Below are positions 54,347 to 63,300 of a DNA stretch of 64,000 nt, in pieces. The DNA lies in assembly GCF_056712565.1 (NCBI RefSeq), contig NZ_CM160072.1. One strand, written 5' to 3'. Position 1 is the stretch's first letter, and every line of letters starts with the position of its first letter. Position numbers: made by a program.

Positions 54347-57300
54347 ATGAAGCAACGTACTCGATATTAGCAATTTGGCGGCAACCCAAAGTTGCCGATT
54401 AATGATTACTTCGCATCAGTCGCCGTGCCGTTGGCGTGCCAGTCAAACACACCGAACTCAAAGCCTTTCAGATCGCCTTTCTCATCCCAGGTCAGCGGCC
54501 CCATCACCGTATCAACCGAGTTCGCTTTCAGGTATTTAGCGATCTCCGCCGGATCGTCAGACTGATTCAGGCCCGCTTGCAAAGATTGCAGCGCGGCGTA
54601 GGTGGTCCAGACGAACGCGCCGCTTGGGTCCTGTTTTTTCGCTTTGATCGCGTCAACAATCGGTTTGTTCGCCGGAACCTGATCGTAGTTCTTCGGCTTG
54701 GTCACCAGCAGCCCTTCCGCTGATTCGCCCGCAATGTTAGACAGCGAGACGTTAGCCACGCCTTCTGGCCCCATAAACTGAGTTTTCAGCCCTGCCGCGC
54801 GTGCCTGACGCAGGATTTGCCCCATTTCCGGGTGATAACCGCCGTAGTAAACGAAATCGATATTCTCTTTCTTCAAACGCGCCACCAGGGTAGAGAAATC
54901 TTTTTCCCCGGCGGTGATGCCATCAAAGAACACCACGTTAGCATTGCCTTTCTTCAGGCCGTCCTGCACTGCACGCGCCAGACCTTCGCCGTACTGCTGT
55001 TTGTCGTGAACGATAGCAATGCGTTGCGGTTTCACTTTCTCAAGTATATATTTCGCCGCCGTCGGCCCCTGGTCTGAGTCCAGGCCGGTGGTGCGCAGGA
55101 TCAGCTGATAGCCACGGGCGGTCAGCTCTGGTGCGGTTGCCGCTGGGGTGATCATTAAAATGCCTTCGTCTTCGTAGATGTCAGACGCTGGCTGCGTTGA
55201 TGAAGAGCAGAGGTGACCAATCACGTATTTAATGCCGTCGTTAACGACTTTGTTCGCCACCGCAACCGCCTGTTTCGGGTCACAGGCATCGTCATATTTT
55301 ACGATTTGCAGTTTGTTGCCTTTGATACCACCTTTAGCATTGATATCCGCAACCGCCTGCTCTGCGCCAGTAAACTCCTGGTCACCGTACTGCGCCACCG
55401 GACCGGACATTGCGCCTACGACGGCGACTTTAATATCTTCTGCCAGAGCCATATTGCTGAATGCCAGCGCGATACATCCTGCCAGTAACGCTTTACCCTT
55501 TATGTTCATCCTGAGAATCCCCACTCTTCTGGTTATTACGTGTGTTGTGATGTTGTTGTGCAGCACTTTATTTCGTTTTATACGTAGCTACCCGTGCTTT
55601 AGCAGCATACTCTGCTAAAACATACCCCATTTTTATGATATTGGAATAGCTATTTTGACAGTTTATTAACAATCTGCGGGACAGTTGGCTTTTTCTACAA
55701 GAAGAAATTCACCTAAACAAGCGTTGGGGTAAAAATAGCCTGGTACATCAAATGATGATGCCATCACGCATACCTCAAACCTGAGCACGATAAAGCTTAC
55801 CGAGCAAAATACATCACAATTCCCGTAATCAAATAAACAAAGTAATGGCAATAAACATTGCTGATAACTAGCCTGTACTCAGTTTTGGAATGGACCTCCC
55901 TTGAGCATTTTTCCTGATATGTTGTCTGGTTTCAAATATTCCTCATACCCCCCAAATGTTGCTCTATAGCATTTAATCTATTAGTAGAAACGGCTATAGC
56001 TCAATTGTGTTTTTCCAGATTGAGCATATCCCTTTTCCCATCCTGAAATTTAAAACAAGCATTAAATATATATAATTAGCATAAAGTCTATCTTCTTTAA
56101 GCGTAATACGTCCTCTTTTTATATATAATTCTTATAAATCATAAGTGTTGATTTATTTACTCGACGTATTTTTGGTTCACTGGAATATATTCATTAAATA
56201 AATATAAAAGTATTCAATTATCATTAATTATGATGAACAGCACATCATAAGCCCTGTTTTTTATTACAAACAATTTATTAGCAATTTTAGCTAATGCTAT
56301 CAACTGTGATCTTGCTAACATTATCGCCAAATAAAAACAATATAATCAAAGGCCAAAGGTTACCTTGCTGAAAGCTAAAAACATTCATGTGTTGAATATT
56401 ATTTATTATCTATCCTCTGTACATATTAAAAGGAATTTATCATTTGAACCAGTTCAATATTATAATTCTGACACACGGTGAGGCAGGGAATGCTTTACTC
56501 GCCAGTAGCGAAATGATTGTAGGTAAAACACCGCATACTACAGCTATTTCTCTGATGCCGGGAATGTCACCTGAAGCACTTATGCAACAAGTAAAAACCA
56601 TACTCAATCCTGATGTAGAAACAATCATATTTACGGATATTTATGGCGGCACACCTTCAAATATCGCCTACCTTCTTTCACGAGAATTTCCCATTCGCTG
56701 CATCAGCGGTGTCAATCTGGCAATGTTAATTGAAGCCAACATGTTACAGGATTCTGACGAAGAACAGTCCTTTGATGAATATATTCAGCATATACATGAT
56801 GCTGGTAAAGAGATGATTCAAACTTATTGTTTTAATAAAGGATGATAAACTATGAGTATAGTACATGCCCGTATTGATTACCGTTTAATTCATGGACAAG
56901 TCATAACAAAATGGCTAAAAAGGAGTGATGCAAATAAAATAATTGTTATTGATGATCCCTTGTCACGCGATCCTTTCCTGGCTGAAGTCTATAAGATGGC
57001 AGCGCCAAGTGGTGTTGAAGTCATAATGACCTCCATTGAAGATACGTTACAACGCTGGAACAGCAATAGTTTCTATGAAGGTAAATTACTAATTCTTTTC
57101 AAATCGATCGATTCTGCATTAAAAACTATACAAGGTGGTTTGATGTTAGAGGAATTACAAGTCGGTGGTGTTGAAAATACTCCGGGAAGAAAAATTGTCT
57201 TTAACCAAATATCACTCAACCACGAAGATGCCGACAAACTTCAAATCATCGAAGATAAGAATATCAAAGTTTATTTCCAAACTATTCCTGAAGAAGATCC

Positions 57301-60300: not shown

Positions 60301-63300
60301 ATCGAATACGAAACGGCAAATCGTTTAGCCGATATCAAAAATATCGTAGCGATAAAAGACAGTAGCGGTAAATTCGAAGTCCAGAAACAGTATCTGGAAA
60401 TCGCTAAACATAAAAACTTTAAGGTATTAAACGGCTCTGACTCGTTAATGCTGGATGCATTTAAAGAAGGTTCTGTGGCTGCTGTCGCTGCAACGTCGAA
60501 TGTTCTGCCTACGATTGAAGTCGATTTATATAATTACTTCATGGCCGGTGAAATGGAGAAGGCGCAGGAAGAGCGTAATAAAATGGATGCACTGCGCATG
60601 ACGATCAAGAAAATGACCGCGCCTGCAGTAATGAAGGAAGCATTAAACCTGATGGGTGTGAAGGCAGGTATTACACGTAGACCAATTCATATGCCAAACG
60701 ACGCGATCGTTGAAGACATCAAGGAAATGTTGAAAGGCTATAATTTCCTGTAAAGGACAAATGCCGGATGTATCTCTTGTCCTACAAGATAGCGTAAACA
60801 AAAACCCCCGGACTCAAATCCAGGGGTTATCTGTGGCAACTTAACGCGCTGCGCGATTACGCTTCAATAGCAGCGCGAAGTTTTTTCATCGCGTTCTTTT
60901 CCAGCTGGCGCACACGCTCAGCGGAAACACCGTAACGGTCAGCCAGTTCCTGCAACGTGGACTTATTGTCTTCGTCCAGCCAGCGCGCGCGGATGATATC
61001 CTGGCTACGCTCGTCCAGACCTTGCATCGCGTCGGTCAGACGGTTTGCTGCCTGCTCTTCCCAGTTATCATCTTCAATGCCGTCGGCAAAGTTAGATGAT
61101 TTATCCTGCAGATAGAGCACCGGAGCCATCGGCTGGCTGTCGGAATCGTCGTCGGAAGACAGGTCAAAGGTCATGTCCTGTGCTGCCATACGTGATTCCA
61201 TCTCACGTACGTCTTTACTGGTTACGCCCAGTTCACGGGCCACCATTTCGACTTCATCCTGGTTAAACCAGCCCAGACGCTGCTTGGTTTTACGCAGGTT
61301 AAAGAACAGTTTGCGCTGCGCTTTGGTGGTCGCAACTTTGACGATACGCCAGTTACGCAGAACGTATTCGTGGATCTCTGCTTTGATCCAGTGGACGGCG
61401 AAGGAGACCAGGCGCACACCCACTTCCGGGTTAAAACGGCGCACTGCTTTCATCAGGCCGATGTTACCTTCCTGAATCAAATCCGCCTGTGGCAGGCCAT
61501 AGCCCGCATAATTACGAGCAATATGAACAACAAACCGCAGGTGAGACAGGATCAGCGTTTTAGCTGCTTCCAGATCGCCATGGTAATGCAGCTTTTCAGC
61601 CAGCGCCCGCTCCTCGTCAGCCGACAACATCGGCCACGCGTTAGCTGCCCGGATGTAGGAATCCAGGTTGCCAACTGGGGCTAAAGCTAAACTTTGCATT
61701 TTGTCAGTCATTCAAATCCTCTCAATCGATATCTTCTGGCGCTTTAGTGGTAGCAACAACTGTGCCAGAGCTTAAGAGCAACGAGGTTATCATTCACTGT
61801 TTTATCAGACCGTGATTTTATCCACAAGTTCAATGCAAGCTTGTGAATAAATTACGCACAAAATGTGACATAGAGATGAAATACCGGGAAGAGACAACGG
61901 GGTCTCTTTCCCTGCTACGGAACCCATTGCAGGGAAAGAGTATAACACGCTTTTATTATTCCGGCGTAAAGTGGCGTAAATGTTGTACCGTGGCAAGCCA
62001 CGCTGCCACCCAACCAATCATCGAGCATACCAGCAGCAATAGCAGGCATTCATCGAACGATAAGCCATTGATATCAAACTTCGTTCCGAAAACCTGTGCC
62101 ACTTCTGCAACCGCCGATGACAAACGCAGTACCAGAATTTCTGACAAAATTAGTGACAACAATGCGCCAGAAAATCCCAGCAATGCGCCACCGTACAGGA
62201 ACGGACGCAGGATGAAACCATCCGTCGCACCAATCAGTTTCTGCACGTTAATGGAGTCACGGCGAGCAAAGATACTCAGGCGCACACTGTTACCGATGAC
62301 GAGGAACACTGCCGCCACCATCAACACGCCGATCATCGCGGAAACGCGCCCGACCAGCCCGGTTAACGCCGCCAGACGGGCAAACCAGCTGTCATCCATC
62401 CGCACTTCGTCAATGCCGTTGATCTGGGTGATACGATCACGCAGCGTATTCAGTGATTCCGTCCCCTGAAAATCGAGTTTCGGGATCACCACCGCCACTG
62501 CCGGAAGCGGGTTTTCTTCCAGCATATCCAGCGCACCACCAAAACCAGACCAGTTACGGAACTCGCCCAGTGCGTCTTCACGAGAAAGATAATTCACTTT
62601 CTCTACGCCTTGCTCGGCCTGTAACTGTGCCACCACACCCGCAGCGGCGTCATCATCCAGCGTTTTTTGCAGATAAACAGTGATTTGCGGTGACGGATAA
62701 TACTGCGTCGCCGCCTGGTTAACGTTTTTGTACACCATATAACAGACGCTGGGCAGCGTCAGGGAGATGGCGATAACCATCACCGTTAAAAACGTGGCGA
62801 ACGGTTTGCTTTTCAGATCCTGCAATGCGCCGTGGAAGGCATAGCGCACCTGTTCGTTGAAAACGTTGGTTTTGCGATTTACCGGTTTTGGCGAGGATTT
62901 CGCCCGTTTTGGCGCGTTACGACCGCCGTCGCCAGAGCCGCCGACCGATTTACGGAAGCGATCCAGACGCCCGCCAAACTGCCGAATATGATTGATTGCA
63001 TCGCGCTTATTCATGGCCCACGCCTCCATGCAAGTGACCATCGCTCAGGGTGAGCATGCGATAGGAACGCCGCGAGATCAGGTTGATGTCGTGCGTTGCC
63101 ATCAATACGGTTACCCCAACGCGGTTAAACTCTTCAAACAGACGTAAAATGCCTTCCGACAACGCGTCGTCCAGGTTACCGGTCGGTTCATCCGCCAGCA
63201 GTACCGCGGGCTTGTTCACCACCGCGCGGGCAATGCCAACACGCTGTTGTTCACCGCCGGAAAGCTGAATAGGGAAGTTCTTCGCTTTGTCCAGTAGCCC

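Follow-up and report, generated by a model that had tools for sequence, protein, structure and literature searches.

The window analyzed here is a stretch of 64,000 nucleotides of Escherichia coli DNA (RefSeq assembly GCF_056712565.1, contig NZ_CM160072.1). Between livJ and rpoH, both on the minus strand, it carries six co-directional plus-strand genes, here called the cassette, which encode the four subunits of a mannose-family phosphotransferase system (PTS; subunits EIIA, EIIB, EIIC, and EIID), a D-2-hydroxyacid dehydrogenase (2-HADH), and a DapA-like enzyme of the dihydrodipicolinate synthase/N-acetylneuraminate lyase (DHDPS/NAL) superfamily (Table 1). A first-pass annotation, made earlier from the sequence alone, had described six tightly packed, AT-rich genes here. 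A check of open reading frames (ORFs) in the window found all six intact at the coordinates given then, and RefSeq calls the same six genes in strain UTI89, where the stretch is 100% identical to the window. The family assignments of that annotation agree with the NCBIfam matches of the six proteins and with Pfam matches of their orthologues.

The two flanking genes are neighbors in K-12, as stated in the first pass, with a spacer of 270 bp. Alignment to K-12 delimits an accessory segment of 5,101 bp (55695-60795) that stands in place of about 35 bp of the K-12 spacer; K-12 homology picks up again at 60796. The GC content of the segment is 39.1%, compared to 50.0% in the remainder of the window. 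Successive genes from EIIA to the DapA-like gene are spaced by +6, +16, -8, +1, and -1 bp, indicating a single operon in which translational coupling is likely.

Table 1. Features of the livJ-rpoH region, with positions in the window. Bit scores are from NCBIfam models.
Feature	Position	Strand	Evidence or remark
livJ	54406-55509	-	
livJ upstream (promoter) region, native, outside the accessory segment	55510-55694		in 5,425/5,426 E. coli genomes; aligns to the K-12 spacer up to 55694
Distal AT-rich stretch, 32.9% GC, without recognizable gene	55695-56256		only in E. coli cassette carriers
Conserved promoter-proximal region	56257-56443	+	start of 86%-identical alignment to E. albertii
Palindrome ATTAGC-N7-GCTAAT, candidate operator	56277-56295		identical in E. 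coli and E. albertii
CRP-like box TGTGATCTTGCTAACA	56305-56320	+	one mismatch to TGTGA-N6-TCACA
Candidate -10 hexamer TATAAT	56341-56346	+	direct sequence reading
Mannose-family PTS EIIA, 133 aa, TTG start	56444-56845	+	TIGR00824, 67 bits (cut-off 98)
Mannose-family PTS EIIB, 161 aa	56852-57337	+	TIGR00854, 102 bits (cut-off 164)
PTS EIIC, 248 aa	57354-58100	+	best NCBIfam match AgaW, 140 bits (cut-off 300)
PTS EIID, 284 aa, RefSeq start taken	58093-58947	+	TIGR00828, 181 bits (cut-off 293)
2-HADH, predicted NAD-dependent, 306 aa; RefSeq "phosphoglycerate dehydrogenase"	58949-59869	+	TIGR01327, 243 bits (cut-off 454)
DHDPS/NAL-superfamily class I aldolase-like enzyme, 294 aa; RefSeq "dapA"	59869-60753	+	PF00701
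rpoH terminator hairpin, also at the 3' end of the convergent PTS operon	60803-60828		terminator scan
rpoH	60857-61711	-	

PTS subunits and the two enzymes

NCBIfam places all four PTS subunits of the window in the mannose/fructose/sorbose PTS family, and PF03610, PF03830, PF03609, and PF03613 matched on the E. albertii orthologues, which are 83-98% identical. Every subunit scores below every substrate-specific NCBIfam cut-off returned (Table 1), and the ManX model gives 65 bits against a cut-off of 400; NCBIfam gave back no Dga or Gfr model, and the comparison covers Man, Aga/Gam, and Sor-type models. The phospho-histidine motifs THG (EIIA) and RLIHGQV (EIIB) are present and are conserved across eight orthologues. 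The TTG start of EIIA, already noted in the first pass, is required because catalytic His11 would otherwise be excluded; it is kept in E. albertii and, by eye in aligned DNA, apparently also in a third Escherichia-like contig (L098). By their sequences, the four subunits make up a complete mannose-family enzyme II with both phospho-histidines. JGI labels the EIIC relatives "D-glucosaminate-specific IIC," which is an automatic name. EIIC homologues below about 50% identity are located in unrelated polyol/ketose clusters and are therefore of no help for substrate inference.

RefSeq names the last gene dapA because its product narrowly passes the TIGR00674 cut-off (214.7 against 206.15 bits), and phosphoglycerate dehydrogenase (PGDH) is the best model for the 2-HADH. 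Taken at face value, these names would make the two enzymes an extra DapA (lysine/diaminopimelate) and an extra SerA (serine synthesis), a reading to which we give hardly any credence. The DapA-like protein is 31% identical to E. coli DapA and keeps the DHDPS residues K161, Y133, Y107, and T44 (numbering of E. coli DapA, checked to be identical in sequence to 1dhp). However, T45 is replaced by asparagine (GTNGE vs GTTGE), as in all 27 close homologues, and R138 is replaced by glutamine, a residue shared by 23 of the 27 (leucine or asparagine in the others); the next 93 homologues have asparagine at both positions. R138 of DHDPS binds aspartate semialdehyde, and its absence is therefore a strong argument against DapA function. 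In our judgment, this active-site evidence outweighs the TIGR00674 pass, and with both replacements in place the identification as a true DHDPS was rejected.

The PF00701 fold of the DapA-like protein, with its catalytic lysine and tyrosine, is that of the DHDPS/NAL class I pyruvate aldolases. Its GTNGEF, PGQTG, and KDSSG motifs correspond to GSNGEF, PANTG, and KDSGG in human HOGA1 (sequence checked against 3s5n/3s5o), at an overall identity of 29%. The archaeal 2-keto-3-deoxygluconate (KDG) aldolase model NF040954 reaches 125 bits against a cut-off of 390.

The 2-HADH scores 155 bits with PRK11790 (cut-off 404), 181 bits with the glyoxylate reductase model, which is the second best, and 132 bits with GhrB; PF00389 and PF02826 matched on its orthologue. 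Alignment with the 1wwk structure of PGDH shows that the catalytic arginine (ARG) and histidine (PH) are preserved, and the NAD site of the 2-HADH reads GLGAIG followed by HDP, in register with the GxGxxG motif and aspartate of 1wwk; this aspartate suggests a preference for NAD. The "VRSKPKV" segment of 1wwk, which we take to hold the counterparts of the phosphate-binding R60/R62 of E. coli SerA, is aligned to "TGNDP-L" in the 2-HADH. Identity with SerA/PGDH was rejected on two grounds, a score of about half the PGDH cut-off and the replacement of the cationic VRS segment by TGNDP. Moreover, both genes are always found inside PTS operons. From these residues, scores, and contexts, a true DapA or SerA function is essentially excluded, and both RefSeq names appear unsafe and seemingly mislabelled. 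Structure matches to the 2-HADH include 9m0t, a "probable 2-ketogluconate reductase."

Ratios of nonsynonymous to synonymous divergence (dN/dS) between E. coli and E. albertii are 0.03-0.12 in all six cassette genes (EIIA 0.12, EIIB 0.03, EIIC 0.04, EIID 0.03, 2-HADH 0.09, and DapA-like 0.03), which by this codon-level comparison shows purifying selection on each of them. Gene lengths equal those in E. albertii, except for the DapA-like protein (294/298 aa). With motifs kept, low dN/dS, and matching lengths, the cassette genes are not pseudogenised.

Related cassettes and the aldolase subfamily

The closest DapA-like homologues beyond Escherichia (53-72% identity) come from Erysipelotrichales (C. 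innocuum, Solobacterium), Coriobacteriia (Olsenella), and other Firmicutes. A search of 100,044 species representatives found homologues with at least 54% identity only in E. albertii, Olsenella uli, a Solobacterium, and one Erysipelotrichaceae metagenome-assembled genome. Every such relative with a long enough contig (C. innocuum, Olsenella, Sporolactobacillus, Irregularibacter, and metagenomes) has the six genes in unchanged order. Identity to the Firmicute/Coriobacteriia cassettes is 73-79% for EIIC, 48-59% for the 2-HADH, and 56-71% for the aldolase. The 2-HADH and aldolase genes overlap or abut in every cassette, and variant L013 has an additional aldolase and 2-HADH pair between EIIB and EIIC. 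The units of C. innocuum and Olsenella are flanked by resolvase, transposase, or integrase genes. Judged by gene content and context, the six-gene unit is a portable, self-sufficient module, and its products should therefore be central metabolites.

All relatives with available upstream flank have a regulator gene beside the cassette, which is CdaR-like, LevR-like, or PRD-type. In three relatives, a divergent CdaR/PucR-type regulator (Diacid_rec + HTH_30) is accompanied by an extra stand-alone EIIB; in the second arrangement, a LevR-type sigma-54 activator goes with a promoter of the TGGCAC-N5-TTGC type. The truncated contig L021 has only a weak PRD-type regulator match. The CdaR/PucR-type regulators (L004 4496-6084, L012 4521-6156, and L013 2962-4597) are without PRD domains. 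The stop codon of the regulator gene overlaps the start codon of the extra EIIB gene that follows it, and this EIIB is only about 27% identical to the transport EIIB. The arrangement suggests a regulator that monitors PTS phosphorylation by way of its own EIIB, for which we know of no previous description. In a LevR-linked relative from fermentation metagenomes, EIID is split into ORFs of 74 and 194 aa in three independent assemblies (L007 1072-1915, L008 8230-9073, and L009 4260-5103), representing either a fixed frameshift (pseudogene) or a recoding site.

Contexts of the GTNGE-type DapA-like subfamily fall into four recurring types among 80 loci. Type I, with mannose-type PTS, 2-HADH, and aldolase, is the present cassette. 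Type II (Pelosinus, Propionispora, and a Bacillaceae isolate) consists of LevR, mannose-type PTS, a SIS protein, 2-HADH, and aldolase. Type III (Enterococcus, Dielma, Erysipelothrix, C. difficile, and E. faecium plasmids) has a Gat/ascorbate-type PTS, in some cases HpcH, a SIS protein, aldolase, Eda, and a PRD regulator. Type IV (Bacillus pumilus group and Paenibacillus) combines a sigma-54 activator, aldolase, an iron-type alcohol dehydrogenase (Fe-ADH), a DtnK-like DUF1537 kinase, a PdxA2-like dehydrogenase, and a DASS-type transporter. SIS proteins of types II and III are single-domain, KpsF/GutQ-type proteins resembling arabinose-5-phosphate isomerase. Partners in the wider subfamily are thus DtnK-like tetronate kinase, PdxA2, Eda, HpcH aldolases, and KpsF-type isomerases. 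No specific NCBIfam equivalog matched the accessory genes of the relatives (HpcH aldolase, second 2-HADH, His-phosphatase, and Zn/Fe alcohol dehydrogenases).

From these partners, it is probable that types I-IV all serve acid-sugar catabolism and that the DapA-like enzyme is a keto-deoxy-acid aldolase. The four-context comparison supports this reaction class without pinpointing the type I substrate. The subfamily, marked by its GTNGE/KDS motifs, is widespread in Firmicutes and lies in acid-sugar/PTS clusters where examined, and one solved member could unlock several pathways.

Two of the sister types suggest substrates of their own. Type III loci (L016, L040, L102, and L103, from Dielma, Enterococcus, an E. 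faecium plasmid, and C. difficile) have an arabinose-5-phosphate-isomerase-like gene adjoining the aldolase, which suggests catabolism of 3-deoxy-D-manno-octulosonic acid (Kdo) or a similar acid; a literature search found no described Kdo catabolic pathway. The gene content of type IV loci (L045 6074-15265; similar in L033-L046, L058, L062, and L091, from Bacillus/Paenibacillus) would fit breakdown of a 2-keto-3-deoxy-heptarate, for instance the pectin sugar Dha, to pyruvate and a tetronate. A similar region, GR6, is listed for E. coli (PMC12928451).

Candidate pathways and known systems

Intact genes, a distinct enzyme pair, and PTS scores below all returned substrate cut-offs support the initial suggestion that the cassette serves catabolism of an unusual sugar or sugar acid. 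We tentatively favor a more specific form of this suggestion, in which the cassette would be a functional, self-contained catabolic operon for an acid sugar, with PTS uptake followed by oxidation by the 2-HADH and then by aldol cleavage. The PTS would take up an aldonate-type sugar acid and phosphorylate its terminal hydroxyl, the NAD-dependent 2-HADH would convert the C2 hydroxyl to give a 2-oxo acid, and the HOGA/KDG-aldolase-like Schiff-base enzyme would split the C3-C4 bond to yield a C3 2-oxo acid together with an aldose phosphate such as glyceraldehyde-3-phosphate. The C3 oxo acid would be pyruvate from a 3-deoxy substrate and hydroxypyruvate from an ordinary aldonate. Reduction of hydroxypyruvate to glycerate is common in this dehydrogenase family; if the same type of dehydrogenase performed it here, the route would be redox-neutral, in line with the CdaR-type regulators found in relatives. 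Acid sugars are preferred as the substrate class because of the CdaR/PucR ("sugar diacid") regulators in three relatives, the D-glucosaminate-type JGI names of the EIIC relatives, and the partners of the aldolase subfamily. Oxidation before cleavage is favored because dehydrogenase and aldolase are strictly coupled in types I and II and because L013 carries the pair in duplicate.

Several points weigh against this scheme. The order of the two enzyme steps is read from gene arrangement only, 3-deoxy-aldonates are rare natural compounds, and we know of no precedent in the DHDPS/NAL family for cleavage to hydroxypyruvate. The sister clusters with a Gat/ascorbate-type PTS have the aldolase and no dehydrogenase; therefore, a dehydrogenase is not always needed beside this aldolase. 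The JGI "glucosaminate" label is automatic and is not a test. The CRP-like box upstream of EIIA is not significant by count, with three one-mismatch matches to TGTGA-N6-TCACA in the window compared to 1.7 expected, and the operon might stay unexpressed without an activator.

The sister clusters also bear on the main rival, which reverses the order of the steps and which we consider rather doubtful. Here the PTS substrate would already be a 2-keto-3-deoxy (ulosonic) acid, such as KDG, 2-keto-3-deoxygalactonate (KDGal), 3-deoxy-D-arabino-heptulosonate (DAH), or an acid like Kdo or 2-keto-3-deoxynononic acid (KDN), and the aldolase would act first to release pyruvate and an aldose phosphate. The dehydrogenase would work after or alongside it, for example by reducing pyruvate or another 2-oxo acid for redox balance. 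Pairing of the aldolase subfamily with a KpsF/GutQ-type isomerase and Eda, without a dehydrogenase, in the sister clusters would agree with a phospho-ulosonic acid being cleaved directly, and 2-keto-3-deoxy(phospho)gluconate [KD(P)G]-cleaving aldolases are established in the NAL family, with the archaeal KDG aldolase model at 125 bits. Glyoxylate reductase is the second-best model for the dehydrogenase, and human hydroxyproline catabolism offers a precedent, with the aldolase HOGA1 acting ahead of the 2-HADH GRHPR. However, a redox valve would need neither strict conservation nor translational coupling in every copy, mobile-element copies included, and the hosts already have lactate dehydrogenases. 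In addition, E. coli already uses KDG via KdgT, KdgK, and Eda.

The human pair also shares with the cassette the GxNGEF, P-x-N/Q-TG, and K-D-S motifs and the combination of a class I pyruvate aldolase with a D-2-hydroxyacid dehydrogenase. However, HOGA1 is only 29% identical to the DapA-like enzyme, and its substrate is a C5 diacid from the degradation of hydroxyproline, with neither PTS nor phosphate involved. The likeness is one of chemistry and not of family membership. The archaeal KD(P)G aldolase and E. coli YagE/YjhH resemble the DapA-like enzyme in superfamily and in the proposed cleavage of a 2-keto-3-deoxy (phospho) sugar acid to pyruvate, but the NF040954 score is far from its cut-off (125 vs 390 bits), and those enzymes occur outside a PTS context.

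A third route makes the dehydrogenase the central enzyme. The PTS would import a 2-keto sugar acid, a KguD/GhrB-like reduction would give a 6-phospho-aldonate, and the DapA-like enzyme would be engaged in a side reaction. The dehydrogenase family does include 2-ketoaldonate and 2-keto-6-phosphogluconate reductases, and the 9m0t match and the GhrB score of 132 bits point in the same direction. We regard this route as quite improbable: it leaves no role for the most conserved enzyme of the pair (dN/dS 0.03; 56-71% identity to cassette aldolases), and it does not explain why the dehydrogenase and aldolase genes are always adjacent.

If oxidation does precede cleavage, the cassette could represent an undescribed type of pathway, although we rate this outcome as quite unlikely. 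It would be a dehydratase-free, two-enzyme route in which a PTS-delivered 6-phospho-aldonate undergoes C2 oxidation and HOGA-like cleavage on its way into central metabolism. In one version, an ordinary aldonate may yield hydroxypyruvate and glyceraldehyde-3-phosphate, followed by glycerate; in another, the substrates may be 3-deoxy-aldonates from dietary or host 3-deoxyglucosone. Such a route would give a private carbon source to the sequence type 95 (ST95) lineage of extraintestinal pathogenic E. coli (ExPEC). The sister clusters would then be missing routes for Kdo (aldolase and arabinose-5-phosphate isomerase) and for the pectin sugar Dha (aldolase and Fe-ADH, tetronate kinase, and PdxA2).

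Comparison with known operons agrees with the first-pass statement that the cassette does not match man, aga, sor, or dga; the enzyme pair differs from that of each, and the PTS scores are below the Man/Aga/Sor-type cut-offs. The Salmonella dgaABCDEF operon for D-glucosaminate likewise has a four-component mannose-family PTS for an acid sugar and, as proposed for the cassette, converts a 6-phospho product to a 2-oxo acid that undergoes aldol cleavage to pyruvate and triose phosphate. JGI automatic names put the EIIC relatives nearest DgaC. The dga operon uses the pyridoxal phosphate-dependent ammonia-lyase DgaE and the Eda-type aldolase DgaF, and it is transcribed by sigma-54 with DgaR. In contrast, the cassette has a 2-HADH and a DHDPS/NAL-type aldolase, with no sigma-54 promoter and no regulator. 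The uncharacterised type I cassettes of Firmicutes and Coriobacteriia (C. innocuum, Olsenella, Sporolactobacillus, and Irregularibacter) have the same six genes in the same order, but they carry either a CdaR/PucR-like regulator with an extra EIIB or LevR with a TGGCAC-N5-TTGC promoter, and the Escherichia copies have neither.

Another ExPEC accessory cluster is the c3405-c3410 island of CFT073, reported by Mosberg et al. in 2011 to encode a PTS, a PGDH-like dehydrogenase, and a single-domain arabinose-5-phosphate isomerase. By that description, it resembles the cassette as an accessory PTS cluster with a PGDH-like 2-HADH and no known substrate, and it differs in having another PTS family, a regulator, and no DapA-like enzyme. 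Region GR19, similar to this island, is listed in PMC12928451. Literature searches by protein accession, locus, gene combination, Kdo catabolism, and livJ-rpoH site found nothing on the present cluster in the library covered; one BEN2908 paper covers other regions only. What is new is a mannose-family PTS operon, in itself of a known kind, with an apparently misannotated enzyme pair, an unusual lack of a regulator, and a probable history of loss rather than gain. Though not surprising in kind, it offers a clearly delimited and testable orphan pathway within a major lineage of pathogens. The RefSeq names "dapA" and "phosphoglycerate dehydrogenase" would mislead metabolic models.

Upstream DNA and history in Escherichia

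The first-pass annotation had assigned an 880-bp AT-rich, ORF-free leader to the operon. The stretch is indeed ORF-free, but it measures 934 bp from the RefSeq livJ start and is a composite of three parts (55510-55694, 55695-56256, and 56257-56443). Its middle part is present only in the 175 cassette-bearing genomes and is not common to E. albertii; RefSeq has no annotation in it. From its base composition only, it is a plausible candidate for an H-NS target. A 61-aa minus-strand ORF (55666-55851) crosses the left junction of the segment, has neither RefSeq annotation nor homology evidence, and is probably spurious. No plasmid match to the upstream DNA was found, and an Rfam search of it gave nothing meaningful, with one sub-threshold match over the rpoH terminator. 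A riboswitch or small RNA in the supposed leader was rejected, with no Rfam match above noise and a 5' untranslated region (UTR) that is poorly conserved across lineages.

Only the proximal 187 bp of the upstream DNA are conserved, and they hold a sigma-70-type -10 element and the CRP-like box, so that a leader reaching across the whole AT-rich stretch is unlikely. This block is kept in three Escherichia lineages (E. coli, E. albertii, and L098) amid diverged DNA. The palindrome, a candidate operator for some regulator, is partly retained in L098. The CRP-like box is kept in E. albertii and nearly so in L098, and for this conservation and its position we retain it as a candidate. The TATAAT hexamer lies 20 bp downstream of the box, and TATAAA (E. 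albertii) and TATATT (L098) are found at its position. The box is centered at about -41 relative to the predicted transcription start, corresponding to class II spacing. A sigma-70 promoter with a class II CRP-like box about 90 bp upstream of EIIA is a reasonable interpretation of these elements, and the 5' UTR would therefore be about 90 nt rather than an 880-nt leader. Expression would then depend on a sigma-70 promoter with catabolite control through the CRP-like box and perhaps silencing of the AT-rich DNA, the donor-type regulator being absent.

As first reported, no regulator gene was found between livJ and rpoH in the ORF check or the RefSeq annotation. A tblastn search of the E. coli and E. 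albertii spacers with five CdaR-like/EIIB and LevR proteins also detected no remnant (best E = 0.13, chance level). The sigma-54 -24/-12 element (TGGCAC-N5-TTGC), which is present in the LevR-linked relatives L015 and L008, is not in the upstream DNA of E. coli or E. albertii.

The segment was found in 175 of 5,426 complete E. coli genomes, always on the chromosome, always at the livJ-rpoH site, and with at least 99% identity. Carriers include UTI89, UM146, APEC O18, other O1/O2:K1 poultry isolates, BEN2908, the type strain ATCC 11775, and the K-12/K1 hybrid EV36. Some of the best-studied extraintestinal pathogens (UTI89, APEC/BEN2908-type strains, and the E. coli type strain) thus possess the operon, and if it supplied these lineages with a carbon source of their own in the gut, in urine, or in birds, it would act as a niche determinant. 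It is undisrupted in 58 of 60 sampled carriers; the exceptions are H21, interrupted by IS1, and H65, in which a 1-bp indel accompanies a renamed DapA-like gene. In E. coli AHB12 (L001 8353-9050), IS1A has inserted close to the 5' end of the DapA-like gene, immediately after the dehydrogenase gene, and the DapA-like ORF that RefSeq annotates beyond it is shortened to 825 bp; the aldolase gene is therefore disrupted or uncoupled from the operon.

E. albertii has the same six genes at the same livJ-rpoH site, with 86% DNA identity from 187 bp upstream of EIIA to rpoH. In L098, the DapA-like protein is 88% identical, and the copy is flanked by livJ-upstream sequence and the rpoH terminator. Synonymous divergence (dS) between E. 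coli and E. albertii is 0.32-1.10 in cassette genes and 0.16-0.53 in flanking core genes. In E. coli HH97 (L104 2783-3217), the livJ-rpoH spacer measures 435 bp and joins the final 166 bp of the segment directly to a K-12-type spacer. This remnant consists of the DapA-like 3' end and the terminator, and its removal would yield the K-12 sequence; such a deletion scar occurs in one of the 5,426 E. coli genomes.

Genomic islands were considered as an explanation. The segment has no flanking repeats and no integrase-like gene, and its site is between two protein-coding genes; no tRNA gene adjoins it in the ORF check or annotation, although no scan aimed at tRNAs was made. A classical genomic island, with integrase, tRNA target, and flanking direct repeats, was accordingly rejected. 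Further hallmarks of mobile elements were likewise not found, with no plasmid match to the upstream DNA and no plasmid-borne DapA-like relative above 46% identity. We favor old acquisition in Escherichia followed by loss in most E. coli because E. albertii and L098 have the cassette at the same site, its divergence overlaps and somewhat exceeds that of core genes, and HH97 carries the scar; recent insertion into the ST95 group is less likely. On the same evidence, the first-pass wording that the genes were inserted between livJ and rpoH probably has the direction wrong. The locus clearly illustrates how a seeming island can be accounted for better as ancestral DNA that most E. coli have since lost.

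An alternative is that the cassette is a cryptic relic, intact yet effectively silent in E. coli, with its activator missing, its AT-rich DNA silenced, and little present-day role. Consistent with a relic, there is no regulator gene or remnant, though the relatives with available flank all have a regulator; GC content is 33-39%; the locus is gone from most E. coli; and IS1 has inserted into it in one carrier. However, dN/dS of 0.03-0.12 at dS of 0.3-1.1 is not expected of silent genes, and the promoter-like block is kept in three lineages. We therefore consider a silent relic unlikely and retain the reading of the cassette as a functional operon.

Two further observations concern the surroundings of the cassette. 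A sigma-54 activator gene at 6326-6724 of the window, presumably rtcR by its map position, matches the LevR-type AAA+ domain at 33-37% identity and is unrelated to the cassette. Between panM and livJ, one E. albertii genome has an intact TacT/TacA-like toxin-antitoxin pair (GNAT acetyltransferase and DUF1778/TacA1; L011 4000-4800), which is absent from the window (53466-54405) and is represented by frameshifted remnants in HH97 (L104 1179-1530). This pair is a second variable module at the livJ locus.

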